Assembly (NCBI GenBank): GCA_963579555.1
Contig: CAUZHA010000002.1
Span: forward strand, 4,307 to 68,306
Reading direction: 5' to 3'
DNA length: 64,000 nucleotides
Source of the DNA: Planctomycetes bacterium UBA1146
GTDB lineage: Bacteria > Planctomycetota > UBA8108
Every line of letters begins with the position of its first letter. Position 1 is the first letter of the stretch. Below the pieces are notes generated by a model. That model saw only the letters and a list, made by a program, of their open reading frames with translations, ran no database searches and was not told the DNA's origin. This document shows positions 4,733 to 60,959 of the stretch, in pieces. The position numbers and the translations under genes are program-made.

Positions 4733-4754
4733 GGCCGCTGGAGCGGAGTCTGTT

Positions 4755-9034: not shown

Positions 9035-9052
9035 GAGGTCTGCGGGGCTGTC

Positions 9053-28447: not shown

Positions 28448-28469
28448 GCCGGGCGGGTTGGATTCCCGC

Positions 28470-29939: not shown

Positions 29940-29969
29940 CGTGAATGCGCCGGGGATTTCCGGGTTGGG

Positions 29970-32900
29970 TTAGCGGGTGTAAAGGAACTCGCTCGACATG
30001 AGCATTGTATGACAGAGCGATTGCCAGTCCGCCAGGGGAAGTTTCTCGAGGTCGGTCTGTCCACGTACGGTGTCCAGAAGTTTTTCAGCCGCCAGGAGAT
30101 CGTCTTCCACGGGCAGGCGGCCGAGCAATGATTCGTAAAGGTAGCTGAGGCGCTCACGGTCGGTCTTGAGAGCTGCGGTGACATTTTTCGCGATGTCCGC
30201 AGCTAGCTCGTTCATCCACGGATTGTTCATCAGGAACAGAGCCTGGGTTGGAACGGTGGTGGTGGTGCGGTTGCCGGCCGGTGCCGCCGGGTTGGGGAAA
30301 TCAAAGAGCGTGAAGAGCTTGTAAACATTGGTTCGAATAATGGGCAGATAGACGGAGCGCCGCCGGCTCGATTCGTAAAAGGCCCGGTTCTGCCGCAGGT
30401 TTTCCGGCGAGGGGTCCTGGGAGCGAACCTTGCTGGTTGGTCCTCCCCCGAGCGTCCGGTCAAGACGCCCGGCGGTGAAGAGAAAGGCATCGCGGATGAT
30501 TTCCGCCTCGAGCCGTTGTGGTTGGAATCTCCAATACCAGCGGTTCTCAGGGTCGATGTCGGCGCTTTCCGGGGCATAGGAGCCGCTCATCCGGTAGGTG
30601 TGAGAGGAGACGATATACCGGTTGAGCTTCTTGATGGACCATTTGAATTTGATCAGCTTGAGGGCGAGGTGATCGAGCAATTTCGGATGGGATGGTTGTT
30701 CGCCTGAGTGGCCGAAGTTCTCGGTGGTCTTCACCAGGGCCCGTCCGAAATGCCAGCGCCAGATCCTGTTGGCGATGACGCGGGCGGTCAGGGGATTCGA
30801 GGGAGAGACGATGGAGTTCGCCAGCCGCAGCCGTCCGCTCTGGCCTTTCGGATATTCCGCCTGCCCGGGTCCTTCGACAATAGTCAGGAATCGCCGTGGA
30901 ACAACGGGGCCTTTCTGGAGGTGATTTCCGCGGATGTAGACGGGGTGGTCGGTTGCCGAGCCGTCTCTCACGGCCATCACGGTGATAGCTGGAATATCCT
31001 TCGCCCTGTCCTCCAGCATGCCGATGGACCGGGTGAGGGCGGTGACGGCTTGTTGTTCGCCCGGGGAATAGTGCGTGGTTGTGTGGCGGTAGGGGGTGAA
31101 GGGGCCCTGTTTCCCGGTGAGGGCCCGGTGGAGCGGTTCGAGCATCGGGATGCGGTCTTCAGCCAGTGCCGCGGTAACCAGCAGCCCGGCCCGGGCTGCG
31201 AACTCACCGGGAATTTTCGGGACCGGGGTGAGCAGCTTCCTGGAGATGGGATTGCCCGGCTTACGTTTGGCGAGAGAGTCTTTGTTTCCCGCCAAGAAAT
31301 TCTCGTTCCCGTGGCTGAGATTGTTCAACAGGTAGAAGGGGGCGTTCGATTTGTCCTGGGTAGCGATGAACCGGGCCCATTGGTGAAGCGCTCCGAGATC
31401 GAGCTTGTTTTCGCTGGCCAGCCGCGCGGGCGAGGGGAGCTTGCGAGTGCCGGGGACCGGAGGAACCAGGCGCAGCTGGTCGAGGTGAGAGACGGCTCCT
31501 TTTCGTTCGAATCGCAGGGTGTGCTGGCCTGCGGCCAGCTCGAGCTCGAGCTCGAGCTGCCATCTCTGGTGGGGTGCCCCCCAGCCGCCGCTGGTGCGGG
31601 CCATCGCTTTTTCCGAGAGGACCTTGCCATCGACGGACAGGACCATCGGTCGCGACGCGAGCGCGGCGTAGCGCAGCAGGAGGGAATAGGCGCCGTCAAC
31701 GGGCGCCTCGATGTCGTATTCCATGAAATAAACGCTGGCGGTATTCGAGGGGTCCGAGATGTAGACCACGTCATCTGCTGTGTAGGGCTTGACGTTTCCT
31801 CTCTGGAAGCTCTCGGCCTGGATTGCCGGGGAGGAAAGTGGCGCTATCCGGGCTACCACGAGCTTGTCGAGGTGAGACATGAGGCCGGTGGCCTCGAAGC
31901 GCAGGATGTTCCTGCCCGCCTTGAATTTGTAGCGCCCCTCGACAAACCACTTCTGGCTGTCGGGGTACCAGGTGCCGGTCACCTGCTCCATGCTCTTTTC
32001 GTTGACGACCTTGTCGTTGATCGAGAGCTTTCCGGGACGGGAAGCCTCGGCTGCATAGCGGAACTCAACCTGGTAGATCCCCTCTTCAGGCAATTCGATA
32101 TCGTATTCGGCCCAGGTCAGCGGTGCCCCCTTGTCCGAGATGATGCCGATCCCCTTGCCATAGCGCTCATCCGGTCGCGCTGTGCCGCGGTCGTAGGTCT
32201 CCGCCTCGCGAAGGAGATGATGCAGGGAAAGCTGCTTGATGTTGACGGTGGAGGCCGCCGGTGTATAGGGGGCATCGGTTGTGTCGGCGAGGGCGAGCTG
32301 CAGGGCGACCGGGACAGAGTGCCGTTGCCATTCGAGCACACCGACCGCGTGCTGGAGATAGGCCGCGATATTCTCTTTCGCTTCTCTGGCGATCCGGGCG
32401 TCAGCTTTCGCGCGCAGCTTCTCGCTGTCTTTCTTGAAGCGATCGATTTCTTTCTGGAGCACCCGCCTCTCGCCGGAATCAAGCTTTCGATTGGCCAGGT
32501 CGGTACTCCTGAGCACTCCGGCCATGGCGTAATAGTCGGTCGTCGGAATCGGATCAAACTTGTGGTCGTGACAGCGGGCGCAGGCGACGGTCACACCCAG
32601 CAGCGAGCGGGAGATCGTATCGATCTGTTCGTCGATGATGTCGGATTGTTTCTTTTCTCCGTCCTTCTCGGCAGCAATCTTGATTCCCATGGCGAGATAG
32701 GTGGTCGCCGTCAGCCTCCGGTTGGTGATCGAGGCCTCGCCGGGGTCCGGCAGGAGGTCGCCCGCGAGCTGCTCACGGACAAACTCATCGAAGGGCCGGT
32801 CCTGGTTGAAGGCATCGATGACGTAGTTGCGGTAGTGGTAGGCGAGGGGATAGGACTTGTTTTCATCGGCGCCGTTGGAGTCGGCGTAGCGTACGACATC

Positions 32901-33698
32901 GAGCCAGTGACGCCCCCAGCGTTCGCCGTAGTGGGGTGAGGCCAGCAGCCGGGTAACGAGGTTCTGCCAGGCACGCGGGTCCTTGTCGTTGACGAAATCG
33001 TTGATCTCCGCGGAGGTAGGTGGGAGCCCGATGAGGTTAAAGGAGAGCCGGCGAATGAGCGTCCTGCGGTCCGCTTCACCCCGCGCCTGAAGCTTGTTGC
33101 TCCCCAGGCGGCTGGAGATGTAGCTGTCGATCGGATTTCGAATCACCGCGCGGGAATCGATCTCCCTGGCCGGGTAATCGGTCAGCGGCTTGAACGACCA
33201 GAAGCCGGCCTCTGCTTTCCAGTCGATCGTTGTTTCTGGAGCGGCTGCAGAGACCGGGCTTCCAAAGGAAGACGGTGCCGGGGCTCCCAGCCGGATCCAG
33301 CCTTCAAAGTCTTTCGCTACGGCCTCCGGCAGCTTTCCGCCCGGCGGCATCTTGAGCTCGTCGTACCTCAGCGCCGCGAGCACCAGGCTCTCTGCCGGAT
33401 TCCCGGGAGCGATGGCGGGCCCGGTTTCGCCTCCCTTGAGGAGTCCCTCCAGGCTGTCGACCCGCAGCTTGCCCTTGAGCTTCTTCGACCCGGCGGAGTG
33501 GCACTTGTAGCAACGCTCGACGAGCACCGGCCGGATTTTCTTCTCGAAGAGCTCGATGCCGGCTGTCTCGTCAAGAGCGCGGGCGCTGCCGGTGTTGAGG
33601 AATACAGCGACCAGCGCTACGGCAGAAAGAGTACGCAGGTTTCCCGCTCCCCGGATGCCGAATCGAGTTGTAAGCGCGGGTAGTTCAGACATGCTCAT
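29970..33698 (-). CDS. PSD1-type protein: Planctomycete cytochrome-c-like domain + DUF1549 + two internal repeat modules + DUF1553
   Basis: Signal peptide. CYKCH motif. CARCHDHKFDPIPTTDYY (DUF1549). Two about 85-aa internal repeats (…EFRYAAEASRPGKLSINDKVVNEKSMEQVTGTW… and …LLRYAALASRPMVLSVDGKVLSEKAMARTSGGW…). The C-terminal region is typical of DUF1553. Confidence 0.8.
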   Translation of the reverse strand: MSMSELPALTTRFGIRGAGNLRTLSAVALVAVFLNTGSARALDETAGIELFEKKIRPVLVERCYKCHSAGSKKLKGKLRVDSLEGLLKGGETGPAIAPGNPAESLVLAALRYDELKMPPGGKLPEAVAKDFEGWIRLGAPAPSSFGSPVSAAAPETTIDWKAEAGFWSFKPLTDYPAREIDSRAVIRNPIDSYISSRLGSNKLQARGEADRRTLIRRLSFNLIGLPPTSAEINDFVNDKDPRAWQNLVTRLLASPHYGERWGRHWLDVVRYADSNGADENKSYPLAYHYRNYVIDAFNQDRPFDEFVREQLAGDLLPDPGEASITNRRLTATTYLAMGIKIAAEKDGEKKQSDIIDEQIDTISRSLLGVTVACARCHDHKFDPIPTTDYYAMAGVLRSTDLANRKLDSGERRVLQKEIDRFKKDSEKLRAKADARIAREAKENIAAYLQHAVGVLEWQRHSVPVALQLALADTTDAPYTPAASTVNIKQLSLHHLLREAETYDRGTARPDERYGKGIGIISDKGAPLTWAEYDIELPEEGIYQVEFRYAAEASRPGKLSINDKVVNEKSMEQVTGTWYPDSQKWFVEGRYKFKAGRNILRFEATGLMSHLDKLVVARIAPLSSPAIQAESFQRGNVKPYTADDVVYISDPSNTASVYFMEYDIEAPVDGAYSLLLRYAALASRPMVLSVDGKVLSEKAMARTSGGWGAPHQRWQLELELELAAGQHTLRFERKGAVSHLDQLRLVPPVPGTRKLPSPARLASENKLDLGALHQWARFIATQDKSNAPFYLLNNLSHGNENFLAGNKDSLAKRKPGNPISRKLLTPVPKIPGEFAARAGLLVTAALAEDRIPMLEPLHRALTGKQGPFTPYRHTTTHYSPGEQQAVTALTRSIGMLEDRAKDIPAITVMAVRDGSATDHPVYIRGNHLQKGPVVPRRFLTIVEGPGQAEYPKGQSGRLRLANSIVSPSNPLTARVIANRIWRWHFGRALVKTTENFGHSGEQPSHPKLLDHLALKLIKFKWSIKKLNRYIVSSHTYRMSGSYAPESADIDPENRWYWRFQPQRLEAEIIRDAFLFTAGRLDRTLGGGPTSKVRSQDPSPENLRQNRAFYESSRRRSVYLPIIRTNVYKLFTLFDFPNPAAPAGNRTTTTVPTQALFLMNNPWMNELAADIAKNVTAALKTDRERLSYLYESLLGRLPVEDDLLAAEKLLDTVRGQTDLEKLPLADWQSLCHTMLMSSEFLYTR

Positions 33699-43413: not shown

Positions 43414-44610
43414 TTAGAGGAGCTGGGCGCCATCGCCAATATTTGTTTCGAATATTCGCAGTGGTTTCATAAAGCGGGCGGTCCATTTCTCCGCGAGCCC
43501 AGCCTGGAATTCTGCAGCTGACTTTTTTTCTACCAGGTTGACGGTAGCTCCGCCGAAGCCACCGCCTGACAGCTTTCCGCCGATAAATCCCGGCAGGCCG
43601 GAGGCCGCCTCTACGAGGAAATCGAGCTCTTCACAGGAATTGCCGAAGAGATCCCGACTGGATGCATGGGACGCGATCATCAGCTCTCCGAGTTTTCCGC
43701 TGTCACCGTTTCGCAGAGCCTCGATGCCGTCCAGCACCCGGCCGTTTTCCCGGAGAACATGTTCCGCGCGTCGACGAGCCTCCGGCTCGATGGTGTCCCG
43801 GCAGTCGAGAAATTCTTCCAGCGTCACCTCCCGAAGGCTCGGCACCGGCCGCCCCAGGGCCTCGGCCAGCTGCCCTGCCGCGCTCTCGCAGTGAGCGCGC
43901 AGCCTGGCGTATTGTCCATCGGTCAGCTGGTGCTGCACCTCGGAATCGGCGATGACGAGGGAGATCCTGGAGCCGCGCAGGGGCAGGCGCTCGAAGTCAA
44001 GCGTCTTGCAGTCAAGGAAGAGGACGTGATCGCGTTTTCCGAAGAGCGCCGAAAATTGATCCAGGATCCCGCAGGGTACGCCGACGAAATCATTTTCCGC
44101 CCTCAGGCAGAGCTTCGCGATCTCCATGGGCTCCTCCGGCCGTCCGCCCAGCAATCCGTAGGCCGCCTCAGCCGTCGCCAGCTCGAGTGCCGCCGACGAG
44201 GAGACTCCCGCTCCGCTTGGCAGTGAGCTTTCCACCGCAAGGTTGATCGATGGCAGTCGCCTGCCGCCCTCCATGATCTCGCGAAGCACTCCCAGTGGGT
44301 AGTTGATCCACGATCCCCCCAACGGCGATGGCTTTTCGAGGCCGGCATCGATTCTCTCGTTGAGTTCGGAGCTCCAGCCGGCGAGGCGGCGGGGAGAGGT
44401 CTCGTCTTTTCCTGCCGCGAGGACGACCGCCAGCTCGAGGGCGACCGACAGGATGTAGCCGTTGTTGTAGTCCGTATGGTTTCCGAGCAATTCCAGTCGT
44501 CCCGGGGCCCTGGCCAGGACGCCGGGGTCCGAGCGGAATTGTTCCCGGTAGCTTTTCCGCGCGCGCTCAGCCAGCTCTTCGCAGGCTGGGAAACGTTCTG
44601 GCGTCATATC
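43414..44610 (-). CDS. galK: Galactokinase
   Basis: RAPGRLELLGNHTDYNNGYILSVALE galactokinase signature. GHMP kinase motif PSGAGVSSSAAL. Start placed at the internal Met (MTPERF...). Confidence 0.85.
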   Translation of the reverse strand, partial: DMTPERFPACEELAERARKSYREQFRSDPGVLARAPGRLELLGNHTDYNNGYILSVALELAVVLAAGKDETSPRRLAGWSSELNERIDAGLEKPSPLGGSWINYPLGVLREIMEGGRRLPSINLAVESSLPSGAGVSSSAALELATAEAAYGLLGGRPEEPMEIAKLCLRAENDFVGVPCGILDQFSALFGKRDHVLFLDCKTLDFERLPLRGSRISLVIADSEVQHQLTDGQYARLRAHCESAAGQLAEALGRPVPSLREVTLEEFLDCRDTIEPEARRRAEHVLRENGRVLDGIEALRNGDSGKLGELMIASHASSRDLFGNSCEELDFLVEAASGLPGFIGGKLSGGGFGGATVNLVEKKSAAEFQAGLAEKWTARFMKPLRIFETNIGDGAQLL

Positions 44611-44735
44611 GAGCTCCGATTCTCCAGGTCCGGTTTCGCGGTTATTGCTGGCACGATTGTGCGTCGCCCGCCGGTGAGCGTCAACGCAGATGAGGGAGCT
44701 TGTCATGGTCCCGGCGGCGTGGCACTATCGGCTCC

Positions 44736-45188
44736 ATGATGGATCCAGGGGAATCTCCAGGCTCAGCCGGCTCCCGTCCTCATGCGGAGGTGGTGGCCGG
44801 CGTCCTTGTTCGTGCCGATGCCTGCCTGCTCTGTCGGCGACCGGAGGGCAGCAATATGGCCGGATATTGGGAGTTCCCGGGCGGCAAGGTCAAGGAGGGA
44901 GAGACCCGTGAGGAGGCGCTCCGCAGGGAGCTGGAAGAGGAGCTTGGGGTCGCGGTATCAGTCGGAGAACATCTCTCGACCCTTGAATACAGCTATCCTC
45001 ATCTCGACATAACCCTCCATCTTTTCAGCTGCGACTCCTTCGAGGGAGAGCCGCGTGAGCTCTACCACCACTCCATCAGCTGGATCGTTCCTGGAGAGGT
45101 CGATCGGTCCTCGCTGGTTCCATCCAACCTGCCCTTTCTGGACATTCTCCTGCGCTCTGGAGAAGATACTTCGCGCGAGCCGGCCTGA
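44736..45188 (+). CDS. NUDIX hydrolase, MutT-like
   Basis: Nudix box GGKVKEGETREEALRRELEEELGV. Confidence 0.7.
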   Translation: MMDPGESPGSAGSRPHAEVVAGVLVRADACLLCRRPEGSNMAGYWEFPGGKVKEGETREEALRRELEEELGVAVSVGEHLSTLEYSYPHLDITLHLFSCDSFEGEPRELYHHSISWIVPGEVDRSSLVPSNLPFLDILLRSGEDTSREPA

Positions 45189-45241
45189 GAATTTGCGGGG
45201 GGCTCGGCTCTTTCACTTCCCGGCACTCTTAACAGGACCTG

Positions 45242-46495
45242 ATGATGACCAGCACCTTCGATCCTGATTCCTGTCGACAGAATTTTCCGGCCCTTGAGAG
45301 AGAGGTCGATGGGCTGCCCGCGGTTTATCTCGATGGCCCGGCAGGCAGCCAGGTCCCCCGGAGCGTGATCGATGCCATGGGAGCTTATCTTGGCGGCCGT
45401 AACGCCAACCACGGAGGGAATTTTCTAACCAGCCGTGAGAGCGATGCGATGCTCACCGAGGCCCATCGCGCGGCGGCCGATTTTATGGGCGCCGCCGATT
45501 CCGACCTCGTTGCCTTCGGCGCCAACATGACGACCCTGACCTTCGCCCTGAGCCGCGCCCTGTCAAAAACCTGGAAGCCCGGTGACGAGGTGATTGTGAG
45601 CCGCTCGGCCCATGATGCCAACTTCAGCCCCTGGGTGCTCGCGGCCGCCGACGCGGGGGCGACGGTGAGCTATGTCGACATCCGGGCCGAGGACTGCACC
45701 CTCGACCTCGATGACCTGGCCGCGAAGCTCTCCAGCCGGACCCGGCTGGTGGCGATTGCCTGCGCGTCCAACTTCAGCGGGACGATTCATCCGGTGAAAA
45801 AGATCACCGCGCTGGCGCATGCTGCGGGAGCCCTCGTCTATGTCGATGCGGTGCACTACGCTCCCCATGCTCCGCTGGAGGTTGAGCGCTGGGGCTGTGA
45901 TTTCCTGGTTTGCTCGGCGTACAAGTTTTTCGGGCCTCACGTGGGACTGCTCTGGGGAAGACGCGAGTGGATGGAGGAATTGCCGGCCTACAAGGTAAGG
46001 CCGGCGGAGAACACCTCTCCTGGCCGCTGGATGACCGGCACCCAGAACCATGAGGGCATTGCCGGTACGCTGGCTGCGATCGACTACCTCGCGGATCTCT
46101 CGCGCACCGATGGCCAGCCTGCGGATCGAAGAGAGGCGCTGCTGAGGACCTGGGAGCTCATCGGTGAATACGAGAGGCTCCTGTTGAGGCGGCTGCTCGC
46201 TGGGCTTGCCGGGGTCAAGGGGCTGAAGGTCTGGGGCATCACCGATCCGGAGCGCGAGCGCGAGAGGGTTCCAACTGTCTCTTTCACGATCGAGGGATAT
46301 ACGAGCGTGGAGGTCGATCGCCACCTGGCCGCCCGCGGTATTTTCGCCTGGAGCGGCAACTTCTACGCCCTGCCGCTCTCGGAGGCCCTGGGTCTCGAGC
46401 CCGACGGGGCACTGAGGGTTGGACTGTTGCACTACAATACCTCCGGCGAGGTAGACCGCCTTGTTGCGGCCCTTGAGGAACTGGTCGGCGGCTGA
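45242..46495 (+). CDS. Aminotransferase class V / cysteine desulfurase-like PLP enzyme
   Basis: Overall similarity to the SufS/CsdA-type fold (…SAYKFFGPHVGLLWG… PLP-Lys region). Confidence 0.7.
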   Translation: MMTSTFDPDSCRQNFPALEREVDGLPAVYLDGPAGSQVPRSVIDAMGAYLGGRNANHGGNFLTSRESDAMLTEAHRAAADFMGAADSDLVAFGANMTTLTFALSRALSKTWKPGDEVIVSRSAHDANFSPWVLAAADAGATVSYVDIRAEDCTLDLDDLAAKLSSRTRLVAIACASNFSGTIHPVKKITALAHAAGALVYVDAVHYAPHAPLEVERWGCDFLVCSAYKFFGPHVGLLWGRREWMEELPAYKVRPAENTSPGRWMTGTQNHEGIAGTLAAIDYLADLSRTDGQPADRREALLRTWELIGEYERLLLRRLLAGLAGVKGLKVWGITDPERERERVPTVSFTIEGYTSVEVDRHLAARGIFAWSGNFYALPLSEALGLEPDGALRVGLLHYNTSGEVDRLVAALEELVGG

Positions 46496-46504
46496 GAGCA
46501 GTGC

Positions 46505-47254
46505 TCAGGCATCTCCCGGGGGAGGCTTCGCCTTGCGTCCTGGCCGCAGGGAGGTCATGTAGATCTGCTCCATCGAGCTCAGGCGTATGTCGGCCTTCAC
46601 GGGCGATTCCGGGGTGTAGTTGACGAGCCGCAGGAGAAAGGATCCATCCGCGTCCAGGTCGATGATGTTGATGCAGCCGGCATCCTGCTCGATTCGGCCG
46701 AAGGTGTCGAGGCCGCCGCCGAGGGCCCTCGACAGGATCATCCGGTTGGTGCCCCCGTGCGTCACCAGGAGAAGCTCTTTCCAGTCGTCGCGTGCCGCCA
46801 GGCCTTCGAAGGCTGGGACCACCCTGTCCTCCAGTGAACCGAAGGTCTCCCCGCCGAGAAACTCGGTGTCCCGAGTGAGGGACTTCCGCAGTGAATTGGC
46901 GAAGGCGAGGTCGGCGCCTTTGCCGGTGTTTTTGAAGGCATCGCCGGGCCTGATCTCGCGCAGGGTCTCGATCATTTCAGTCTGCGGCCTGGAGCCGATC
47001 TGCTCCAGGGCCAGCTCGGCGGTCTGCAGGGTTCGCGGCAGGCCGCTGGTTATTACCAGGTCAATTTTCGCTTCGCTGAGAGCCTTGCCGGCGGCGCGGG
47101 CCTGGCTCCGGCCCTCGCCGTTCAGCGGGACCTCTGCCTGCTGGTAGGGGAGCCCGCTGGGGTCAAAGTAGCTGACCTCGCCGTGGCGAAGAAGATAGAT
47201 TCTTCGCCGTGCGTTGATCACGTTTTCAAGCTCGGTTAGCATATCGTCGCGCAT
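46505..47254 (-). CDS. Histidine phosphatase family protein (phosphoglycerate mutase-like)
   Basis: RIYLLRHGEV (RHG catalytic motif). Start placed at the internal Met. Confidence 0.65.
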   Translation of the reverse strand: MRDDMLTELENVINARRRIYLLRHGEVSYFDPSGLPYQQAEVPLNGEGRSQARAAGKALSEAKIDLVITSGLPRTLQTAELALEQIGSRPQTEMIETLREIRPGDAFKNTGKGADLAFANSLRKSLTRDTEFLGGETFGSLEDRVVPAFEGLAARDDWKELLLVTHGGTNRMILSRALGGGLDTFGRIEQDAGCINIIDLDADGSFLLRLVNYTPESPVKADIRLSSMEQIYMTSLRPGRKAKPPPGDA

Positions 47255-47314
47255 ATTAGTTCCGCCGGGCCGATGGTTCAAGATGATCAGGCCGCGGGTC
47301 TCAGGGAGTAAAAC

Positions 47315-48109
47315 ATGAACAACCAGCTGCTGGAACAGGTATTGGAGGTCGCGGCAGCGGCCGGACGCGCCGCGATGGAACATTACGGAAGCGATGCCCC
47401 GGTGGAGTACAAGGAAGATAATTCACCGCTTACGCTTGCCGACAAGGCGGCCCACTTCGTGATCGTGAACGCGTTGCAGGTGCTGGATCCCTGGCTGCCG
47501 GTGCTGTCGGAGGAATCGGACAAGGATGAAATAGCCGACCGCAAGAGCTGGCATGATTTCTGGGTCGTCGACCCTCTTGACGGGAGCAAGGAGTTCATCA
47601 AGCAGAGCGGCCAGTTCACGGTGAATATCGCGCGGGTCCAGGGAGACGAGCCGGTGCTGGGTGTTGTTCACGCGCCCGCCACGGGTGAATACTATTACGC
47701 CGCGCGCGGCGATGGAGCCTTCGCCATCCGCGCGGATGGATCCGTCGACGAGATCGTCGTGAGTCCGGCTGATCCGCCGGGCCTGAGAATCGTGGCGAGC
47801 AAGGACCATGCGGGTCCGCAGGTGGAGGCTCTGCTCGAACGCCTCGATGACGCCGAGAGCGTCAGCATGGGGAGCTCGCTGAAGTTCTGCCTGGTGGCGG
47901 AGGGCGCGGCGGATTTCTATCCGCGTCTCGTCCCGACCATGGAGTGGGACACCGCCGCGGCCCAATGCATTCTCGAGACGGCCGGGGGCTACCTGGTCGA
48001 TCTCGCTGGACGCCGGCTTCGCTACAATAAGGATGACCTGCGCAATCCTTCCGTTCTCGCCTATGGAGATGATTCCATGGACTGGCGGGCCCTCCTCGAA
48101 GAGGACTGA
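47315..48109 (+). CDS. cysQ: 3'(2'),5'-bisphosphate nucleotidase CysQ (inositol monophosphatase family)
   Basis: WVVDPLDGSKEF motif. Overall IMPase family pattern. Confidence 0.8.
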   Translation: MNNQLLEQVLEVAAAAGRAAMEHYGSDAPVEYKEDNSPLTLADKAAHFVIVNALQVLDPWLPVLSEESDKDEIADRKSWHDFWVVDPLDGSKEFIKQSGQFTVNIARVQGDEPVLGVVHAPATGEYYYAARGDGAFAIRADGSVDEIVVSPADPPGLRIVASKDHAGPQVEALLERLDDAESVSMGSSLKFCLVAEGAADFYPRLVPTMEWDTAAAQCILETAGGYLVDLAGRRLRYNKDDLRNPSVLAYGDDSMDWRALLEED

Positions 48110-48132
48110 GAGTCCTTGCTGGCGGGGGAGGG

Positions 48133-48176
48133 GGCCGCGGTCCGGTGGCTCCCTGGAGGAGCCCCGGGCCGCGGTC
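48133..48176. terminator. GC-rich imperfect inverted repeat between convergent cysQ and the glutathione peroxidase gene (candidate bidirectional terminator)
   Basis: GGCCGCGGTCCGGTGGCTCC ... GGAGCCCCGGGCCGCGG forms a stem of about 17 bp. It is followed on the plus strand by the T-rich TCTGTTTCC. Confidence 0.35.
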
Positions 48177-48190
48177 TGTTTCCGCGCGTT

Positions 48191-48835
48191 CTATCCCTTC
48201 TTCTTCACTGCCGCGGGCTTCTTGTAGGCGCCGCGAGCGGTCAGGGCCTTGTCCAGCGCCGCCGTTACCTTCGCGCCCATGGGATTCTCCCTGGGCGAGA
48301 ATTTTGCCAGGACCTTTCCCTCATGGTTGATGAGGTATTTCTGGAAGTTCCATTTTACGGCTCCACCGAGCTTGAGATTCTTCTTGTCGGTGAGGAACCT
48401 GTAGATGGGGTGTATGTCTGCGCCCTTGACGGAGATCTTGGAAAAGAGAGGGAAGGTCGCCTTCTTCTCTTTCCTGCAGAAGGACTTGATCTCCAGGTCG
48501 GTGCCGGGTTCCTGTCCGTTGAAGTTGTTGGCCGGAAATGCGAGAACCTGGAAGCCCCTGGACTTGTACTTTTTCTGGAGTGACTCGAGACTCGAGTACT
48601 GTGGTCCGGTGAGGCCTCACCTGCTGGCGACATTGACGACGAGGAGGATCTGGTTCCTGAACTTGTCCAGGGCTACGGCCTTGCCGTCGATGTCCTTCGC
48701 CTTGAATTCAAAAAGCGAATTCAGCGTCTTCGCGTTCTTTCCGGCATCATCAGCCACGGCTCTCGCCATGAATCCGCCGGCGAGGAGCGCAAGACCGAGG
48801 ACGAGATATTTTCTGCGCATGTCTGCTCCTTGCAT
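48191..48835 (-). CDS. Selenocysteine-containing glutathione peroxidase (BtuE-like), periplasmic; in-frame TGA (48617-48619) decoded as Sec
   Basis: Manual translation through the TGA gives MQGADMRRKYLVLGLALLAGGFMARAVADDAGKNAKTLNSLFEFKAKDIDGKAVALDKFRNQILLVVNVASR-U-GLTGPQYSSLESLQKKYKSRGFQVLAFPANNFNGQEPGTDLEIKSFC...TFPLFSKISVKGADIHPIY...VKWNFQKYLINHEGKVLAKFSP. This is collinear with E. coli BtuE (VNVASKCGLTPQYEQLE..RGFMVLGFPCNQF..WNFEKFL), with the TGA exactly at the catalytic Cys position. Stop is TAG at 48191-48193. Confidence 0.85.
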
Positions 48836-48954
48836 AAGGGGGCATAAGGGGTTGGTGTCTCACGGCTGGTCGCCGCGACGAACATTCAGCATAGCAGCAA
48901 CCCCGGGCTAAGAAAAGAACCGCTGTCGTATCGGCGGGCCGCTCCGACAGGATC

Positions 48955-50379
48955 TTACATGGAGCAGGACCAGTCCTCGAGCCGCAGGCGCTCTTCGAGG
49001 CTGAGCTCGCAGGCGTAGCCGAAGCCCTCGCCCTGCAGGGAGGCTACCTTGAGGCTGCCGTTTCGAATCAGCAGGCGGGCGGAACGGCCAAAGGGCTGGT
49101 AGAGGTCCGGATGGGCCTTCAGGACGGCCGCCACCTCGGCCGGGGGCAGGTGATCGAGTCCCCGGAAGTAGTGGTGGCCATTGCGCTCCACATGGGGAAT
49201 TCCCAGGGCCGCTACCGTGGCGAGATCCTGCTGGAGAGGAATGATGGGAAGATTGGCGAGATCTTCGGCGCTCTGGAAATAGCGTTCTTCGCCGGCCTCT
49301 CGGTTGAGCTCGCAGACGATCCGGCGGTTGTGGAGGCTCTTGAAGATTCCCTTGCAGTTCTTATGCGAGGTGCCGCTGTAGCCGAGAGCCACGGCCCTCT
49401 TGAAGCTGTCGAGGCTGTCGTCGGATTCATCGATGATGATCGGCCTGGTTCCTGCCAGCTCACGCAGCCCCGCCTCCTGGCCGCAGGAGAGCGCGGTTTC
49501 CCGGCTGAGCGGCTGCTCGATAAAGAGGATCCGTTCGCAGAAGCGCTCCGTTGCGGTCTCCCGGGAGAGTCTGTCGAGCAGCTCGATCAGCTGGCGGGGA
49601 TCCTTGTATTGTTCGTTCCCATCGAGGGTGATGGAGTAGCCATCGGCGCAGCGCTCCTCGAAGAGGCGGGTCAGCTCTCCGATGCGTTCGAGGTCGGTGT
49701 CATCATCGCCGCAAACTTTCACCTTGAAATAGCTCAGGCCGTATTCGTCGATGCATTCATCGAGAGCCTGCGGCAGCCCATCGCGCAGGCGGTCCTCACT
49801 GGAGATATCGCTGGCGCGGATCGGGTCGCCCAGGCCTACGGTATGCCGGCAGTAGAGCCGTTCGAGCGGCTGGTCAGGAAGTATGGTGGAGGTCTCGAGT
49901 CCCGTGAGATTATTTTTCAGCAGCTCGAAGAAGGACAGACCGCGGAGCCTGGCGAGAGCATCGAGCATCGCCCGCTCGAAGAAAGAGCTGCCGAAGGCAG
50001 AGGTCAGCGCGTTGAGTCCGGCCCTGGAGCCATCCTCGTAGACCCGGGGAAGAGCGGCCTGCCAGTGCTCGGCCGCGGTCGCGGCGCGGGCTCCGCAGTC
50101 GAGGTAGATCTCCCGGGCCAGGACCATCGCCGTCACCTGGTCCTCGACGTTCCGCCGCAGGCTCTTTTCCGGGTCCTTGTCGAACCAGCGCGGCGGCAGG
50201 CCGTCGGCGGCGACTCCTCGGGCGGTTTTTCCATTGGAGTCCTCGACCGTGAGGCGTATGTGGAGGGCTGGAGCCGCCGTCATGCAGGCGATACCGTAAC
50301 GAAAAGGCATCCGCGTGGAGATGTCATGGATGAAGGCCTCAACCTCTATCAGCCTGATGAGCGGTGCCTCGTTTCGCAT
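48955..50379 (-). CDS. Enolase-superfamily protein (mandelate racemase/muconate lactonizing enzyme-like)
   Basis: KVKVCGDDDTDLERIGEL (KxK). LDGNEQY metal-ligand region. Paralogous to the partial gene at the window end. Confidence 0.7.
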   Translation of the reverse strand: MRNEAPLIRLIEVEAFIHDISTRMPFRYGIACMTAAPALHIRLTVEDSNGKTARGVAADGLPPRWFDKDPEKSLRRNVEDQVTAMVLAREIYLDCGARAATAAEHWQAALPRVYEDGSRAGLNALTSAFGSSFFERAMLDALARLRGLSFFELLKNNLTGLETSTILPDQPLERLYCRHTVGLGDPIRASDISSEDRLRDGLPQALDECIDEYGLSYFKVKVCGDDDTDLERIGELTRLFEERCADGYSITLDGNEQYKDPRQLIELLDRLSRETATERFCERILFIEQPLSRETALSCGQEAGLRELAGTRPIIIDESDDSLDSFKRAVALGYSGTSHKNCKGIFKSLHNRRIVCELNREAGEERYFQSAEDLANLPIIPLQQDLATVAALGIPHVERNGHHYFRGLDHLPPAEVAAVLKAHPDLYQPFGRSARLLIRNGSLKVASLQGEGFGYACELSLEERLRLEDWSCSM

Positions 50380-50944: not shown

Positions 50945-50991
50945 GCGGATCTATATTCCTGCCGGGCTGAAACAAAGTACGGGTAATGATC

Positions 50992-51801
50992 ATGGCCTAC
51001 TGTCCTGGATGCGGCGAGGAGGCGCTCAAGAACGCGACCTTCTGCGATTATTGCGGTGGTGACCTGCCGCGGGGCCAACCGGGGCTGGAAGAATCTCCCG
51101 GCGATGCGCCCGCGAGGATTTTCGCAAGGGCAGAGGAGAAGCCATCTTCACGAGGCCCCGCCTTTCTTGTCCTGTTTTGCGCCCTCCTTGGGGCTCTTCT
51201 CACAGGCGTCTTGCTTTTTCGGTTTGTCGGCGACGGGGGAGATCCCGGTGAGTTGTTGGGCATCATCATCTATGGCAGCTTTGCCGGAGGTTTTCTTTCA
51301 GGCTTGGTGGCGAAGGTAGCCGTCCGGATAGTGAGGGGGCCTAAACCTTCACCTTATTCGGGGGAGATATTTACCTATCCTGGGCCTAGGTCTGAAACGC
51401 CAGGGATGTCCGGAGCGCGTCCACTGCCGGAGTCGGCGGGTCGTCTCAAGATATGGAGAGGAGTCCTGCTGAGCATCGTTACTTTCGGCTTCTACTTTTT
51501 TTTCTGGAAACACCATCAGATCAAGGTGCTGAACTCCTGGCTTGGCCGGCAGGAGCACAGCCTCTGGAAGTGGCTGCTGCTCAGCCTGCTCACCTGCGGT
51601 TTCTACATGCTTTACCATGAATACAAGACGGGCTGCGACATCAACGAGATCCAGCGCAGGATGGGTTGGCCGGAAGACAGCTTCCTGGGAATCTTCAGCT
51701 TCCTGGCTTGTCTGTGCGGCCTCCCGCTCGTGTCGCTGATCCTTCAGCAGGTTGCGATCAACAGCTTCTACAGCTTCGCCGGCAATAAGGACCCGGGCTG
51801 A
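50992..51801 (+). CDS. Zinc-ribbon + DUF4234-like membrane protein (paralog 1)
   Basis: N-terminal CPGCGEEALKNATFCDYCGG zinc ribbon. Hydrophobic helices. C-terminal module YFFFWKHHQIKVLNSWLGRQEHSLWKWLLLSLLTCGFYMLYHEY conserved with the next gene. Confidence 0.6.
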   Translation: MAYCPGCGEEALKNATFCDYCGGDLPRGQPGLEESPGDAPARIFARAEEKPSSRGPAFLVLFCALLGALLTGVLLFRFVGDGGDPGELLGIIIYGSFAGGFLSGLVAKVAVRIVRGPKPSPYSGEIFTYPGPRSETPGMSGARPLPESAGRLKIWRGVLLSIVTFGFYFFFWKHHQIKVLNSWLGRQEHSLWKWLLLSLLTCGFYMLYHEYKTGCDINEIQRRMGWPEDSFLGIFSFLACLCGLPLVSLILQQVAINSFYSFAGNKDPG

Positions 51802-51943
51802 TGGTTACGTTAGCCGAACCTCGTTCGGCTGTTCCTGGCCGGGCGCGGTTTTTCCCTGGCAGGCAGGCTCAGGTCTTTTCCGATAAGGCCGAGTCGGTTA
51901 TTCTGCAGGAGGAATCTGGGTATTGATATCGAGGTATTGAGAG

Positions 51944-52438
51944 ATGGCTGCTTGTCCAGCATGCGGCGAACGTCTTGTTGGGGCCGCGGAATTTTGTGAC
52001 TACTGCGGGGAAAAACAACCCGGGGAGACCGGCCGCCAGGCCGCCGCCTACTCTTCCTACAGGAATCCTGCTCCTGTTCCGAGAGAAGAGGCTTTTGTCA
52101 GCATCGGCACGGGAATCTTTCTGACCCTCCTCACCTGCGGAATCTACAGCTTGTTCTGGCAGGCGCGGCAATTCAGGGTTCTGAATGCCTGGCTGGGCAG
52201 GCGGGAGTACAGTTTCTGGTCGTGGTTTGGACTCTGTCTCATCACCTGTGGTTTCTACGGTATTTACTCTGAATATCAGATGGCCAAAAGCATCCTCGAA
52301 ATCCAACGTAAGCGGGAGTGGCATACCGACCCTAACCTGGCGACGCTATGTGCTGCGGTGTCGATGTGTGGATTTCCCATCGCCTCGATGGCTATCCAGC
52401 AGGAAGAGATCAACAAGTTCTATAATCCAACCAAGTGA
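51944..52438 (+). CDS. Zinc-ribbon + DUF4234-like membrane protein (paralog 2)
   Basis: CPACGERLVGAAEFCDYCGE zinc ribbon. YSLFWQARQFRVLNAWLGRREYSFWSWFGLCLITCGFYGIYSEY shared module. Confidence 0.6.
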   Translation: MAACPACGERLVGAAEFCDYCGEKQPGETGRQAAAYSSYRNPAPVPREEAFVSIGTGIFLTLLTCGIYSLFWQARQFRVLNAWLGRREYSFWSWFGLCLITCGFYGIYSEYQMAKSILEIQRKREWHTDPNLATLCAAVSMCGFPIASMAIQQEEINKFYNPTK

Positions 52439-56852: not shown

Positions 56853-58385
56853 ATGAAAACCAGCAGAGTTTTTCTTGGTTCCTTCCTCCTGGTGATCGCA
56901 ATCATCTACCTGATGACACGCGGTGGCAGCCGGGGAGAGAGTATCGGTGAGTTGTACCTGTATTGTGCCGCGAACATGCGCAGGCCGCTTGAGGAACTGG
57001 CGGAGCGTTATTCCGAGAAGTACAAGGTCACCATCGTGGCTGACTACGATGGTTCAGGGAGTCTCCTGGGCAAGCTGCAGGCTGAGGCTGGCAGCGCCAG
57101 GAAGGAAAAACGCGGTGATCTGTACCTGGCTGCTGATGACTCCTACATTCTCAAGGCGAGAGAAAAAGGAATTGTCGATGAGAGCCTGCTCGTTGCTTAC
57201 ATGCATCCGGTCATAGCTGTGCCGAAGGGGAATCCGAAAAACATTTCCGGTGTTGCTGATTTGCTTGGTGATGGCCTCAAGGTGGCGATTTGCAACCCGG
57301 ACCAGGCGGCGGTTGGCCGCAGCGTTCGCAGGGTTCTGCAGGAAAGTGGACAGTGGGATCGTCTTGAGAAAAAAGTGACGGTCATGAAGCCGAAGGTGAC
57401 CGATCTCGCCAATGACGTGAAGCTGGGAACGGTGGATGCCGCGATCGTCTGGGACTCGACGGTGGCGATGTACCCGGAGCTCGAAGAAGTACGGGATCCG
57501 CTGCTGTACAAGGAGCGTGTGAACGTTACTCTTGGCGTCGTGAGTTCATCCCGGAACCCCTCCATGGCGTTGCGTTTCGCCCGCTTTCTCGCAGCTGAAG
57601 ACGAGGGCCTGCCGGTCTTCAGGGAATTCGGTTTTAAAACGCCGGAGGGTGATCCCTGGGAAGAGAGGCCGGAGTTGGTTGTCTGGAGTGGCGGAGTGAA
57701 TCGACTGGCGATCATGCAGACCATCAAGGAGTTCCAGGAGCGTGAGGGGGTGGCGGTCACCACCACCTACGGTGGCTGTGGAGCTCTCACTGCCCAGATG
57801 AAAACTGTCTGGGAGAAGCCGGGTTTTCCCGATGTTTATTTCGCCTGTGACCGGGTCTATATGGAGAACGTCAACGATTGGTACCTCGCGAGCAAGGATG
57901 TCTCCGAAACGGATATGGTCATCCTGGTCCCGAAGGGCAATCCGCGTAAGGTCCGCGGCCTCGAGGAGCTCGGCGCTGATGGGATACGACTCGGGGTTGC
58001 CGACCCCGTCAAGAGTGCCCTCGGGCGCCTGACCGTCGACCTTCTGAAGAAGTCAGGGTTGTACGAGAAGGTCTACAGCAAGGTGGAAACCAAGGCCGGA
58101 ACCGCCGATCTCCTCGTCAACCAGATCGTCGTTTCAGGTGGCAAGAGCCTCGATGCGGTGATCGTCTATCGTGCAAATACAGCCAAGGTTCAAGACAAGG
58201 TGGCGATCGTGAACATCGACCACCCAGCTGCCCTCGCCAGCCAGCCCATAGCCATCAGCCGCATCTCAAAACGCTCTCAGCTTGCACGCCGTTTTATCGA
58301 TAAGATACTTTCGCCCGCCTCCCAGCGGCGCTTCGAGAAGGTGGGCTTTCGCTGGCATCCAGGGGGAAAGGAAGGTGGCGAGTGA
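56853..58385 (+). CDS. modA: Tandem-duplicated molybdate/tungstate ABC substrate-binding protein (two ModA-like domains fused)
   Basis: N-terminal signal anchor. First module YLYCAANMRRPLEELAERYSEKYKVTIVADYDGSGSLLGKLQAEAG...DLYLAADDSY. Second module LAIMQTIKEFQEREGVAVTTTYGGCGALTAQM...DVYFACDRVY. Both fit the ModA/WtpA periplasmic binding fold. Confidence 0.65.
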   Translation: MKTSRVFLGSFLLVIAIIYLMTRGGSRGESIGELYLYCAANMRRPLEELAERYSEKYKVTIVADYDGSGSLLGKLQAEAGSARKEKRGDLYLAADDSYILKAREKGIVDESLLVAYMHPVIAVPKGNPKNISGVADLLGDGLKVAICNPDQAAVGRSVRRVLQESGQWDRLEKKVTVMKPKVTDLANDVKLGTVDAAIVWDSTVAMYPELEEVRDPLLYKERVNVTLGVVSSSRNPSMALRFARFLAAEDEGLPVFREFGFKTPEGDPWEERPELVVWSGGVNRLAIMQTIKEFQEREGVAVTTTYGGCGALTAQMKTVWEKPGFPDVYFACDRVYMENVNDWYLASKDVSETDMVILVPKGNPRKVRGLEELGADGIRLGVADPVKSALGRLTVDLLKKSGLYEKVYSKVETKAGTADLLVNQIVVSGGKSLDAVIVYRANTAKVQDKVAIVNIDHPAALASQPIAISRISKRSQLARRFIDKILSPASQRRFEKVGFRWHPGGKEGGE

Positions 58386-59269
58386 GTCAGCCGGATGTTA
58401 CCAGCAGGCGCTCTGATGCGGCGAAGGCAGGCTCGCCGGGCGGGAGCATCTCGCGCTGGCTCGGCAACAGCGGCTTTCTCGTTGCCCTTATCCTGGTTGG
58501 TTCCTTCTACGTGATCATGCTCCTGGCGATGCTGGCGGCGGACCTGACCTGGACCGCGCCCGGGGATTTTATCAAGGCCCTCTCTTCCGAAGAGATCCAG
58601 TACTCGATTCGCCTGAGCCTGATGTCGTGTACCGTTGCAGCGATCCTCTCGGTTTGGGTTGCTGTGCCGATCGGCTACCTGATGTCCCGCTTCAACTTCT
58701 TCGGCAAGGGGTTTGTCGATGCCATACTCGACATTCCGATCGTCCTGCCGCCGCTGGTGGTCGGGCTCAGCCTGCTCGTTCTTTTTAGTACCACTGCCGG
58801 CGTCTGGGTGGAGGAGCAGTTCAAGGCGGTCTTCGGTACGGGGATCACCTACCAGATTCCAAGTGTCGTGCTGGCACAGTTCATGGTCGCCTGCGCCTTC
58901 GCTGTGCGCACTATGCGGACCACCTTTGACCAGATCTCGGTGCGGCAGGAGGATGTCGCCCTGACGCTGGGTTGCAGCCGCTTCCAGGCCTTCTGGCGGG
59001 TCACCCTGCCGGAGGCGCGCAACGGGCTGATTACCGCGCTGACTCTTGCCTGGGCCCGCTCGCTGGGCGAGTTCGGACCAATCCTGGTCTTTTCCGGGGC
59101 GACTCGCATGAAGACGGAGGTTCTGCCGACCACCGTTCACCTTGAACTGACCACAGGGGATTTGGAGGCTGCCGTGGCGGTTTCGCTCCTCATGGTGGTC
59201 TGCGCGGTCGGAGTGTTGTACGCGATCAGGCACTTTGGCAGTGACAGGGCCATGGGGCGGGTTATCTGA
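58382..59269 (+). CDS. modB: Molybdate ABC transporter permease
   Basis: Six hydrophobic helices. ABC permease EAA-like loop LTLGCSRFQAFWRVTLPEARNGL. Overlaps modA by 4 nt. Confidence 0.8.
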   Translation: MSQPDVTSRRSDAAKAGSPGGSISRWLGNSGFLVALILVGSFYVIMLLAMLAADLTWTAPGDFIKALSSEEIQYSIRLSLMSCTVAAILSVWVAVPIGYLMSRFNFFGKGFVDAILDIPIVLPPLVVGLSLLVLFSTTAGVWVEEQFKAVFGTGITYQIPSVVLAQFMVACAFAVRTMRTTFDQISVRQEDVALTLGCSRFQAFWRVTLPEARNGLITALTLAWARSLGEFGPILVFSGATRMKTEVLPTTVHLELTTGDLEAAVAVSLLMVVCAVGVLYAIRHFGSDRAMGRVI

Positions 59270-59276
59270 GACCATG

Positions 59277-59930
59277 ATATCAGTCAAGAAGCTCAACCTG
59301 TCGGTAGGGGAGTTCGCCCTGCAGAATGTGAGCTTCGAGGTTCCGACCAGGTCCTATTGCGCGCTGATGGGTAAGACCGGTTGTGGCAAGACCACCATCC
59401 TCGAAGCGGTCTGCGGTCTGCGTAACGTCGATTCCGGAAGCATCATCCTGATGTCGCGGGAGGTTACCAGCCTGCCGCCGGCGGAGAGGGGAATCGGCTT
59501 CGTTCCGCAGGACGGCGCTCTTTTTTCCAGTATGACGGTCGAGGAGAACCTCGGTTTTTCGCTGGCGGTGAGGAACAGACCGAAGGGAGTTGTCGCGGAG
59601 CGTGTGAAGGAGCTGGCGGAGCTCCTTGGCATATCCAGCCTTCTCCAGCGGAGGATCCAGGGACTCAGCGGAGGTGAAAAGCAGCGGGTAGCGCTTGGAA
59701 GGGCTCTCGCCTTTGAGCCCGGCATTCTCTGTCTCGATGAGCCCCTCAGCGCCCTCGACGATGATACCAAGACGGGACTCGTCGATTTGCTCGCCAGGGT
59801 CAGGGAGGAAACCGGTGTGACGACGCTTCATATCACCCACAGCCTGCAGGAGGCGAGGTCTCTCTGTGATATGCTCCTGGTGATGGAAGACGGCCAGGTG
59901 AGGGAGTTGCCGGTGGAGGGCGAGGCATGA
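59277..59930 (+). CDS. modC: Molybdate/tungstate ABC transporter ATP-binding protein (no TOBE domain)
   Basis: Walker A GKTGCGKTT. LSGGEKQRVALGRAL. CLDEPLSALD. Only about 217 aa. Confidence 0.75.
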   Translation: MSVKKLNLSVGEFALQNVSFEVPTRSYCALMGKTGCGKTTILEAVCGLRNVDSGSIILMSREVTSLPPAERGIGFVPQDGALFSSMTVEENLGFSLAVRNRPKGVVAERVKELAELLGISSLLQRRIQGLSGGEKQRVALGRALAFEPGILCLDEPLSALDDDTKTGLVDLLARVREETGVTTLHITHSLQEARSLCDMLLVMEDGQVRELPVEGEA

Positions 59931-60205
59931 AGGTGAAGATTCGTTATTGCGGACAACTCAAACAGGGCGCCGGCTGCGCTGCGGAGGCGGTCGATCTCGG
60001 AGGCGAACTGAGCGCCCAGGAGCTGATTGCGAGCGTGGCGGCGAGGCATGGTGAACCGCTCACCGGGTACCTGCTCGATGAGAGCGGGCGCCTGAGGGCG
60101 ACGGTGCTCGCCTTTGTGAATGAAGAGCAGGTTGACTGGGAGACCGCAAGACCGCTGGGCGATGGAGACGAGCTGGTTTTCATGTCGGCGATCGCCGGCG
60201 GTTGA
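59927..60205 (+). CDS. MoaD/ThiS-family sulfur-carrier protein
   Basis: 92 aa ending in a Gly-Gly C-terminus (...MSAIAGG). Beta-grasp-like pattern. Overlaps modC by 4 nt. Confidence 0.65.
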   Translation: MKVKIRYCGQLKQGAGCAAEAVDLGGELSAQELIASVAARHGEPLTGYLLDESGRLRATVLAFVNEEQVDWETARPLGDGDELVFMSAIAGG

Positions 60206-60233
60206 GCCGGTCGAGGTAAACGGATCCGGAAAA

Positions 60234-60959
60234 ATGATCGAACCCAAATCACTCACCGACGAAGAGCGCGCTGTCTACGAATGGCAGATGTGGGTCCCCG
60301 AATTCGGCGAGGAAGGGCAGGAGAAGCTCAAGGGGGCCTCGGTGCTGATCTCCCGCATCGGCGGACTCGGGGGCGTGGTCGCCTACGAACTCGCCGCCGC
60401 CGGGGTCGGGCGCCTGGTGCTGGCTCACGCTGGGGATGTGAAACCCAGTGATCTGAACAGGCAATTGCTCATGACCCACGACGGCCTCGGAAAATCGCGG
60501 GTGGAGTTGGCCGCGAGGCGTCTGCGGGAGCTCAACCCCCGTCTCGAGATCGAGGCCGTCGCTGAAAATGTCAACGAGGACAACGCCGCGACGCTGGTCG
60601 GGAGCGTCGACCTGGTGGTCGATTGCGCCCCGCTTTTCGAGGAGCGCTTCCTGTTGAACCGCGAGGCACAGAGCCAGGGCAAGCCGCTGGTTGAGTGCGC
60701 GATGTATGAGCTCGAGGCGCAGCTGACCACCTTTCTCCCCGGGAAAACCAGCTACCTGCACGAGCTCTTTCCTGAAAAGCCCGGGTGGTGGAAGCGCGAG
60801 TTCCCGGTATTCGGCGCAGTCTCCGGCGCGGTGGGCTGCATGGGAGCGATGGAGGCCATCAAGGTCATCTCGGGGATCGGCGAGCCGCTCGCCGGTGAGC
60901 TGCTGGTCTTCGATCTCGGTGAGATGCGTTTTCACAAGATGAAGCTCGGCGTTTCCTGA
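60234..60959 (+). CDS. ThiF/MoeB/HesA family E1-like adenylyltransferase
   Basis: Rossmann motif ISRIGGLGGVVAYELAAAGVGRLVL. Family-typical DLNRQ motif. Confidence 0.75.
   Translation: MIEPKSLTDEERAVYEWQMWVPEFGEEGQEKLKGASVLISRIGGLGGVVAYELAAAGVGRLVLAHAGDVKPSDLNRQLLMTHDGLGKSRVELAARRLRELNPRLEIEAVAENVNEDNAATLVGSVDLVVDCAPLFEERFLLNREAQSQGKPLVECAMYELEAQLTTFLPGKTSYLHELFPEKPGWWKREFPVFGAVSGAVGCMGAMEAIKVISGIGEPLAGELLVFDLGEMRFHKMKLGVS

Follow-up and report, generated by a model that had tools for sequence, protein, structure and literature searches.

The window analyzed here is the whole stretch of 64,000 nucleotides (nt) taken from contig CAUZHA010000002.1 of the assembly of Planctomycetes bacterium UBA1146 (GCA_963579555.1, positions 4,307 to 68,306), the source organism being a marine planctomycete that is uncultured. 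On its minus strand, at 48820-48191, lies a glutathione peroxidase (GPx) gene whose reading frame is interrupted by a TGA codon. Our analysis indicates that this is very probably one intact gene for a selenocysteine (Sec)-containing GPx, with a SECIS (selenocysteine insertion sequence) inside the open reading frame (ORF), and that ORF callers have missed it. The features of the gene and of its neighborhood are listed in Table 1.

Read from 48835 to 48191, the frame comprises 72 codons ending in ...LLVVNVASR, a TGA at 48619-48617, 141 sense codons (GLTGPQYSSLESLQKKY...) and a TAG at 48193-48191. An earlier description made from the letters alone (hereafter the sequence-only reading) had proposed a TGA-interrupted GPx frame that continues for 141 codons, with the TGA at the catalytic cysteine (Cys) or Sec site, and the translation, the Pfam match and the alignment with homologues confirm this. 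Its choice of start codon at 48835 was wrong. The true start is the ATG at 48820, because the Shine-Dalgarno sequence AAGGAG lies 5 nt upstream of it and because the in-frame ATG at 48835-48833 is lost in close relatives: it is ACG in the related locus L004 and is directly followed by TAA in L001. The arrangement AAGGAG-CAGAC-ATG is kept in all orthologues, which are collinear with the coding sequence of the window across all 630 nt.

The sequence-only reading also held that automated ORF calling misses the gene, and public gene calls bear this out: they report products of 67 and 118 amino acids (aa), the N-terminal piece beginning MRR, or drop the 3' half. Contigs of the window's own lineage (L012 at 11797-12189, and L013-L016 at identical positions) have two ORFs called inside the 3' half of the GPx gene, one of 29 aa and an antisense one of 86 aa, an annotation artefact that arises because the UGA interrupts the real frame.

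With Cys placed at the TGA, the joined protein matches the Pfam family GSHPx (PF00255) with an E-value of 8.2e-37 and a score of 125.5 bits (gathering cut-off 27). The domain begins at residue 36, and the match covers profile positions 1-107 out of 108 on both sides of the TGA, so the joined frame aligns end to end as had been anticipated. Searches of the PDB returned structures of GPx4, yeast Gpx3/Hyr1, poplar GPX5 and the trypanosomal peroxidase with E-values of 1e-36 to 1e-42, and in these alignments the TGA falls at the peroxidatic Cys/Sec. The GPx catalytic tetrad is Sec/Cys-Gln-Trp-Asn (PMC10084747), and residues U68, Q103, W157 and N158 align with the corresponding residues of GPx4. The best NCBIfam match is the BtuE equivalog model NF007900 (E-value 7.5e-48). 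This match is split into two stretches and scores 162.5 bits against a cut-off of 270, so the earlier label "BtuE-like" does not hold: the protein is a member of the GPx family and not a BtuE equivalog.

The TGA is conserved. A protein search found two truncated 118-aa matches, 94% and 79% identical to the C-terminal half of the window protein; the contigs with these matches stem from one GenBank assembly and from marine metagenomes, TARA included. Each contig has the 118-aa piece, a GSHPx fragment of 67 aa and the in-frame TGA, and follows the gene order of the window (GPx, CysQ-type phosphatase, histidine phosphatase and class-V aminotransferase). From genome loci and four metagenome stretches we defined a clade comprising the window, L001-L011, L017, L103, L121, L168 and L029, which shares the signature U-G-L-T-x-x-x-Y-S-S-L-E-S, the motif FPANNF or FPANDF, and a retained Cys115. 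Every one of these orthologous contigs that we examined has the TGA; across different projects, more than 15 independent assemblies agree in this codon. The relatives that keep it (10 contigs carrying P0011, L011, L017, L103, L121, L168 and L029) are 50-94% identical to the window protein at the amino acid level. They range from L017, a Planctomycetota metagenome-assembled genome (MAG) named UBA8108 with 94.7% nucleotide identity to the window over 4.2 kb, to L029, a Phycisphaerae MAG with 50% aa identity.

We scanned for homologues using one genome per species, which returned 80 GPx loci. The catalytic codon is TGC or TGT in 78 of them and TGA in two (L017 and L029). For the clade, the ratio of nonsynonymous to synonymous substitution rates (dN/dS) 3' of the TGA is 0.11-0.33 in five comparisons, equal to or below the upstream values, which indicates purifying selection, and we therefore conclude that the downstream frame is translated. 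In a scan of metagenomes for the DNA pattern encoding V-N-[VT]-A-S-x-TGA-G-L-T, 107 out of 120 stretches (within L097-L216) proved to be GPx genes with an in-frame TGA. Many of the pattern matches in this set look eukaryotic and have no hairpin within the ORF.

Shortly after the UGA, the mRNA GUACUCGAGUCUCGAGUCAC at 48599-48580 can form a 6-base-pair (bp) stem closed by a GUC loop (ACUCGA-GUC-UCGAGU). The core stem pairs 48597-48592 with 48588-48583, and three more pairs across a bulged C bring it to 9 bp. The sequence-only reading had put this hairpin forward as a SECIS candidate, and the comparison among clade members indicates that it is real and conserved; the loop begins 25 nt after the UGA. 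All clade members but L029 are identical at the nucleotide level over the 24 nt CAGUACUCGAGUCUCGAGUCACUC, even at 50-64% aa identity, whereas outside the hairpin core the codons for identical residues differ in 34-50% of cases. Fisher tests of identity in the core gave P values of 0.006-0.04 in six out of seven pairs with the window-type core, and 0.12 in the closest pair (the window and L001). In L029 the hairpin reads ACUCCA-GUU-UGGAGU, a two-sided change from G:C to C:G that keeps the stem.

The published bSECIS model combines rules for loop, stem and spacing (16-37 nt) with an energy of at most -7.5 kcal/mol (PMC13188914). The GUC loop, the stem of 6 bp (9 with the extension) and the spacing of 25 nt all lie within its loop, stem and spacing rules. 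A strict bSECIS-type scan is passed by 59 out of 107 Sec-GPx sequences and by 2 out of 78 Cys forms. The window sequence fails this strict scan because of a competing fold and of the -7.5 kcal/mol cut-off, and we used an energy-free combinatorial hairpin test in its place. Under this rule, which requires at least six Watson-Crick pairs together with the loop and spacing rules, a hairpin was found in 41 out of 107 Sec-GPx sequences, in 1 out of 78 Cys homologues and in 1% of shuffled sequences.

The competing fold is the one that RNAfold gives for a 76-nt segment spanning the UGA: a long hairpin (-25.5 kcal/mol, z -2.4) with the apex loop UCA, beginning at the GA of the UGA. We rejected this minimum free energy (MFE) apex as the functional one, because L121, L168 and L029 disrupt its pairs and show no compensating change. 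Across eight sequences 97% of cells are paired for the GUC apex, including its 3-bp extension, compared with 83-88% for the MFE apex; in L121 and L168 the GUC apex is itself the MFE structure. We therefore chose the GUC apex over the UCA apex on the comparative data, namely conservation, compensation and pairing. The lower helices of the long hairpin are paired in 72-84% of cells, are lineage specific and are broken in distant members. In L001 and L004, one of them (columns 15:58 of the alignment) shows a covariation from A:U to C:G (GGAC/GUCC to GGCC/GGCC).

In the dominant clade of bacterial Sec-GPxs in the metagenomes (UGLTPQYAGLRTLH), the hairpin GUACGCA-GGUC-UGCGUAC occupies the same codon positions and follows the UGA by 21 nt. 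We therefore see in the element of the window a variant form of the usual GPx SECIS rather than a new kind of element.

The protein retains a resolving Cys. BLASTP aligned SFC115RKEKKATFP of the window protein with QFC82QLNYGVTFP of yeast Gpx3; the PDB entry 3cmi (HYR1) was matched separately. The resolving Cys of 2-Cys GPx-like enzymes sits in the "Cys block", a helix downstream of FPCNQF (PMC10084747), and Cys115 is present in every clade member compared (the window, L001, L103, L121, L168 and L029). The sequence-only reading had taken the alanine (Ala) of FPANNF as the replacement of the resolving Cys, and as a fit to a Sec enzyme. This was mistaken: the resolving Cys is Cys115. FPANNF is also found in close homologues of the Cys type and, among metagenomic Sec-GPxs without the resolving Cys, FPCNQF is kept in 76 out of 88, so the Ala is unrelated to Sec. 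The retained Cys is the one mildly unusual feature of the gene, because only 8 out of 96 scorable metagenomic Sec-GPxs keep it (it is absent in the dominant UGLTPQYAGLRTLH clade) and because the usual account is that the gain of Sec made the resolving Cys dispensable (PMC8614756).

The N-terminus shows the pattern of a cleavable export signal, in which a basic n-region and a hydrophobic core precede an A-x-A site (A21-V22-A23). This pattern is conserved in the orthologues, and scans of the protein with Pfam and NCBIfam gave no match to a Tat-signal profile. The exported location claimed in the sequence-only reading is thus plausible: the predicted signal suggests that the mature enzyme most likely acts outside the cytoplasm, and a periplasmic location is likely. 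At the other end, a Lys-rich tail (KKPAAVKKKG) follows the GPx domain at 48191-48250 and is variable in the clade. In L121 it has a K/E-rich extension about 50 residues longer. The tail might serve in surface or envelope association.

These features suggest the following mechanism. The UGA at 48619-48617 would be read as Sec, with SelB.GTP.Sec-tRNA(Sec) recruited by the hairpin AGUACUCGA-GUC-UCGAGU-C-ACU (48600-48579) within the coding sequence, its loop 25 nt after the UGA; the same hairpin would fix the peptide Y-S-S-L-E-S. The 209-residue precursor would be exported and cleaved, probably after A21-V22-A23. Sec68, activated by Gln103, Trp157 and Asn158, would then attack the hydroperoxide and be converted to a selenenic acid. 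Because Cys115 is retained, we propose that this acid is probably resolved with Cys115 into an intramolecular Se-S bond, which a thioredoxin-fold protein, rather than glutathione directly, would reduce. With such an Se-S cycle and a thioredoxin-fold reductant, the enzyme may be best described as a Sec/Cys "2-Cys-type" GPx. More tentatively, and with rather less confidence than we place in the gene itself, the Planctomycetota and Phycisphaerae members may form a distinct clade of exported peroxidases that combine Sec with a resolving Cys, run a selenenylsulfide cycle recycled by a periplasmic thioredoxin-fold protein, and have their own GUC/GUU-triloop SECIS hard-wiring Y-S-S-L-E-S.

Several observations weigh against the interpretation as a Sec-GPx gene with its own SECIS. 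Neither the 64-kb window nor some 9 kb of additional flank nor the related loci yielded selA, selB, selD or tRNA-Sec. ARAGORN detected no tRNA in the window or in 12 related loci, an NCBIfam scan of ten window ORFs (of suitable size or adjoining the GPx gene) gave no SelA, SelB or SelD, and no Sec genes were seen in the flanks about 10 kb past both window ends. The 22-nt hairpin alone has an energy of -6.9 kcal/mol, slightly short of the -7.5 of the model, and for the window lineage RNAfold favors the UCA apex (-25.5 kcal/mol, against -22.4 with the conserved GUC apex forced, over 70 nt). The covariation is limited to two events among eight related sequences, the first in the apical stem and the second in a lower one. 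No Rfam match was obtained for the whole window at gathering thresholds or for 48520-48660 at E-values up to 10, a result that we rate as uninformative. Finally, the export and the Se-S mechanism rest on our reading of the sequence. Other Planctomycetes have complete selA/selB/selC/selD sets and several selenoproteins (PMC4807772); a keyword search of the supplementary files of that study did not find GPx.

The strongest of the alternatives, although very unlikely, is that the UGA is read through without Sec, by near-cognate insertion of Cys, Trp or Arg or by a lineage-wide reassignment of the codon, in a host lacking Sec machinery. The weakness of the isolated hairpin (-6.9 kcal/mol) would be in keeping with this. 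However, TGA terminates 31 out of 43 long ORFs in the window and is the commonest genuine stop. For instance, the CysQ and cysteine-desulfurase-like genes end in TGA and fit their NCBIfam models right up to the final residues. When the window was screened for further in-frame TGAs with coding-like flanks, the GPx gene was left as the sole credible case, the six other matches being gene ends or antisense frames. As TGA is a normal stop elsewhere in the window, the genetic code is standard and UGA68 is recoded locally. Simple read-through would also leave aside that the UGA sits at a redox Cys/Sec site and is followed, at SECIS spacing, by a conserved hairpin with a G-U loop, of a type specific to Sec forms under both the strict and the Watson-Crick-pair rules given above. 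We thus favor insertion of Sec at UGA68, which the in-ORF hairpin would direct.

Less probable again is that the UGA normally stops translation, giving a 67-residue secreted peptide and a separate 118-residue protein that starts at an internal GTG (VLAFPANNF...). The public calls correspond to exactly these two products, and RF2 termination is described as always competing with Sec insertion (PMC4513850). Against this, the two called ORFs are separated by 23 in-frame codons (GLTGPQYSSLESLQKKYKSRGFQ) that are conserved and belong to the GPx domain, and neither half alone contains the catalytic tetrad. No Shine-Dalgarno sequence precedes the GTG, and the gene calls of the window lineage omit the 118-aa piece. 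The weakest alternative, in which the locus is a broken Cys-GPx pseudogene and the TGA a recent nonsense mutation or a mistake of sequencing or assembly, would account for gene callers seeing two ORFs or dropping the 3' half and for the absence of Sec machinery from the window, but it is effectively refuted by the conservation of the TGA across those independent assemblies, in lineages just 50-80% identical, with 141 open downstream codons under constraint (dN/dS as above) and an intact catalytic tetrad and resolving Cys. On this evidence we rejected code reassignment, the split gene and the pseudogene alike.

The gene order around the GPx gene (window 43414-50379; Table 1) is conserved in all related contigs, and in this order a NUDIX gene lies between the desulfurase-like gene and the galactokinase. 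The desulfurase-like protein shows weak, sub-cutoff similarity to the selenocysteine lyase SclA, and a link to sulfur or selenium is possible.

Table 1. Features of the predicted Sec-GPx gene and of the genes around it, in window coordinates.
Feature	Position	Strand	Basis or remark
Sec-GPx precursor coding sequence (predicted)	48191..48820	-	209 codons including Sec68, plus TAG; single in-frame TGA
Shine-Dalgarno sequence AAGGAG	48826..48831	-	Followed after 5 nt by ATG 48820
Predicted N-terminal export signal, residues 1-23, MRRKYLVLGLALLAGGFMARAVA	48752..48820	-	Sequence reading; likely cleavage before DD
UGA, predicted Sec68 codon, peroxidatic residue of VNVASR-U-GLT	48617..48619	-	TGA conserved; Cys in homologues
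Candidate SECIS apical hairpin, AGUACUCGA-GUC-UCGAGU(C)ACU	48579..48600	-	Conservation, compensatory change, rarity in controls
Apical loop GUC (GUU in L029)	48589..48591	-	G at loop position 1, 25 nt after UGA
Extended lower stems from the GA of UGA, GAGGCCUC : GGGGCUUC and GGAC : GUCC	48550..48618	-	RNAfold; partly conserved
Gln103 codon, catalytic tetrad (NGQEPG)	48512..48514	-	Aligned with Gln of GPx4 GKQEPG
Cys115 codon (TGC), resolving Cys in "Cys block" (SFCRKEKKATFP)	48476..48478	-	Aligned with yeast Gpx3 Cys82
Trp157-Asn158 codons, catalytic tetrad (VKWNFQKY)	48347..48352	-	Aligned with GPx4 IKWNFTKF
Enolase-superfamily MR_MLE gene	48955-50379	-	
CysQ 3'(2'),5'-bisphosphate nucleotidase	47315-48109	+	
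Histidine phosphatase	46505-47383	-	
Cysteine-desulfurase-like TIGR01976 protein	45242-46495	+	
Galactokinase	43414-44706	-	

The window also carries the Planctomycete-specific families PSCyt1/2/3, PSD1/2/4/5, DUF1501 and DUF1552, which support the phylum assignment, and its closest named relative is the Planctomycetota MAG UBA8108. Two pairs of such genes lie at 24840-33698: a PSCyt1/PSD5/PSD4/PSCyt3/PSD2 protein (672 aa) with a DUF1552 protein (536 aa), and a PSCyt1/PSCyt2/PSD1 protein (1242 aa) with a DUF1501 protein (489 aa). A tandem array of at least six paralogues of the amidohydrolase family (Amidohydro_1/3) spans window positions 11-7450 and L217 positions 4584-9962, and includes a protein of 1341 aa that has three amidohydrolase modules and is encoded just upstream of the window. 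At 14277-19604 on the minus strand, a 1775-aa ORF combines a PQQ-type beta-propeller at the N-terminus with Laminin_G_3 and Malectin domains at the C-terminus; its product is probably a secreted carbohydrate-binding protein. Adjacent paralogues of 271 and 164 aa at 50986-52438 combine an N-terminal zinc-ribbon-like motif (CPxCG...FCDYCG) with DUF4234, and in related contigs a DUF2752 gene follows them. Finally, at 56853-60959, ABC transporter genes (an SBP_bac_11 binding protein, a permease and an ATPase) are followed by ThiS-like and ThiF/MoeB-like genes. Elsewhere, MoeB-like proteins form an established selenoprotein family, but this region showed no in-frame TGA.

Taken as a whole, the gene is a new, currently mis-annotated member of a selenoprotein family that is already known, in a phylum that already has Sec users, and it leaves the current understanding of Sec decoding unchanged. 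Its recognition corrects a systematic mis-annotation, in which public assemblies split the gene (67 aa and 118 aa) or place spurious small ORFs at its 3' half. It also adds a GPx-type selenoprotein to a little-studied marine lineage of the Planctomycetota, which implies the use of selenium there. The clade offers a natural test case of a predicted Sec peroxidase with a retained resolving Cys outside the cytoplasm, and the gene illustrates how a SECIS hairpin can constrain the protein sequence that it overlaps. Kryukov and Gladyshev (2004) are reportedly the source for bacterial GPx-like selenoproteins. Lists of bacterial selenoproteins have included GPx-like proteins with a UxxT Sec motif since 2004-2006 (PMC1088965, PMC1794560, PMC13188914), and in a 2026 review the bacterial GPx selenoproteins are still "predicted with high confidence" (PMC13188914). 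Known examples are the GPx of Treponema denticola (WP_010957027.1) and the Sec-GPxs of the Sargasso Sea (Zhang et al. 2005, PMC1088965; PMC13188914).

Compared with other bacterial Sec-GPxs, the window protein belongs to the same family (PF00255) and has its predicted Sec at the same peroxidatic site, in U-G-x-T. In both cases the SECIS, a candidate one here, closely follows the UGA within the coding sequence and carries a G in its small apical loop, and Cys homologues are widespread. The clade of the window differs in its predicted export signal, in having FPANNF or FPANDF instead of FPCNQF, in keeping the resolving Cys, and in its GUC triloop at 25 nt, where the dominant clade has the GGUC hairpin described above at 21 nt. 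E. coli BtuE (NF007900) is likewise a bacterial GPx homologue, but its peroxidatic residue is Cys, where the window protein has a predicted Sec.

The hairpin itself can be compared with the E. coli fdhF-type SECIS. Its GUC triloop differs from the GGUC tetraloop of fdhF, and its bulge lies on the 3' side. In the fdhF-type SECIS and the bSECISearch consensus (PMC13188914), the hairpin likewise lies in the ORF after the UGA, and the window element shares with them a small apical loop beginning G-U, a bulged stem nucleotide and a spacing in the range of 16-37 nt, whereas in isolation it is slightly weaker than the energy threshold of the bSECIS model. Among characterized enzymes, the 2-Cys thioredoxin-dependent GPx-like peroxidases (yeast Gpx3/Hyr1, 3cmi; poplar GPX5, 2p5q; trypanosomal TDPX, 2vup) share with the window protein a monomeric GPx4-like architecture without long insertions and the resolving Cys of the "Cys block", and yeast Gpx3 is 41% identical to it. 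The window protein differs from them in its predicted Sec in place of the peroxidatic Cys and in its predicted export signal.

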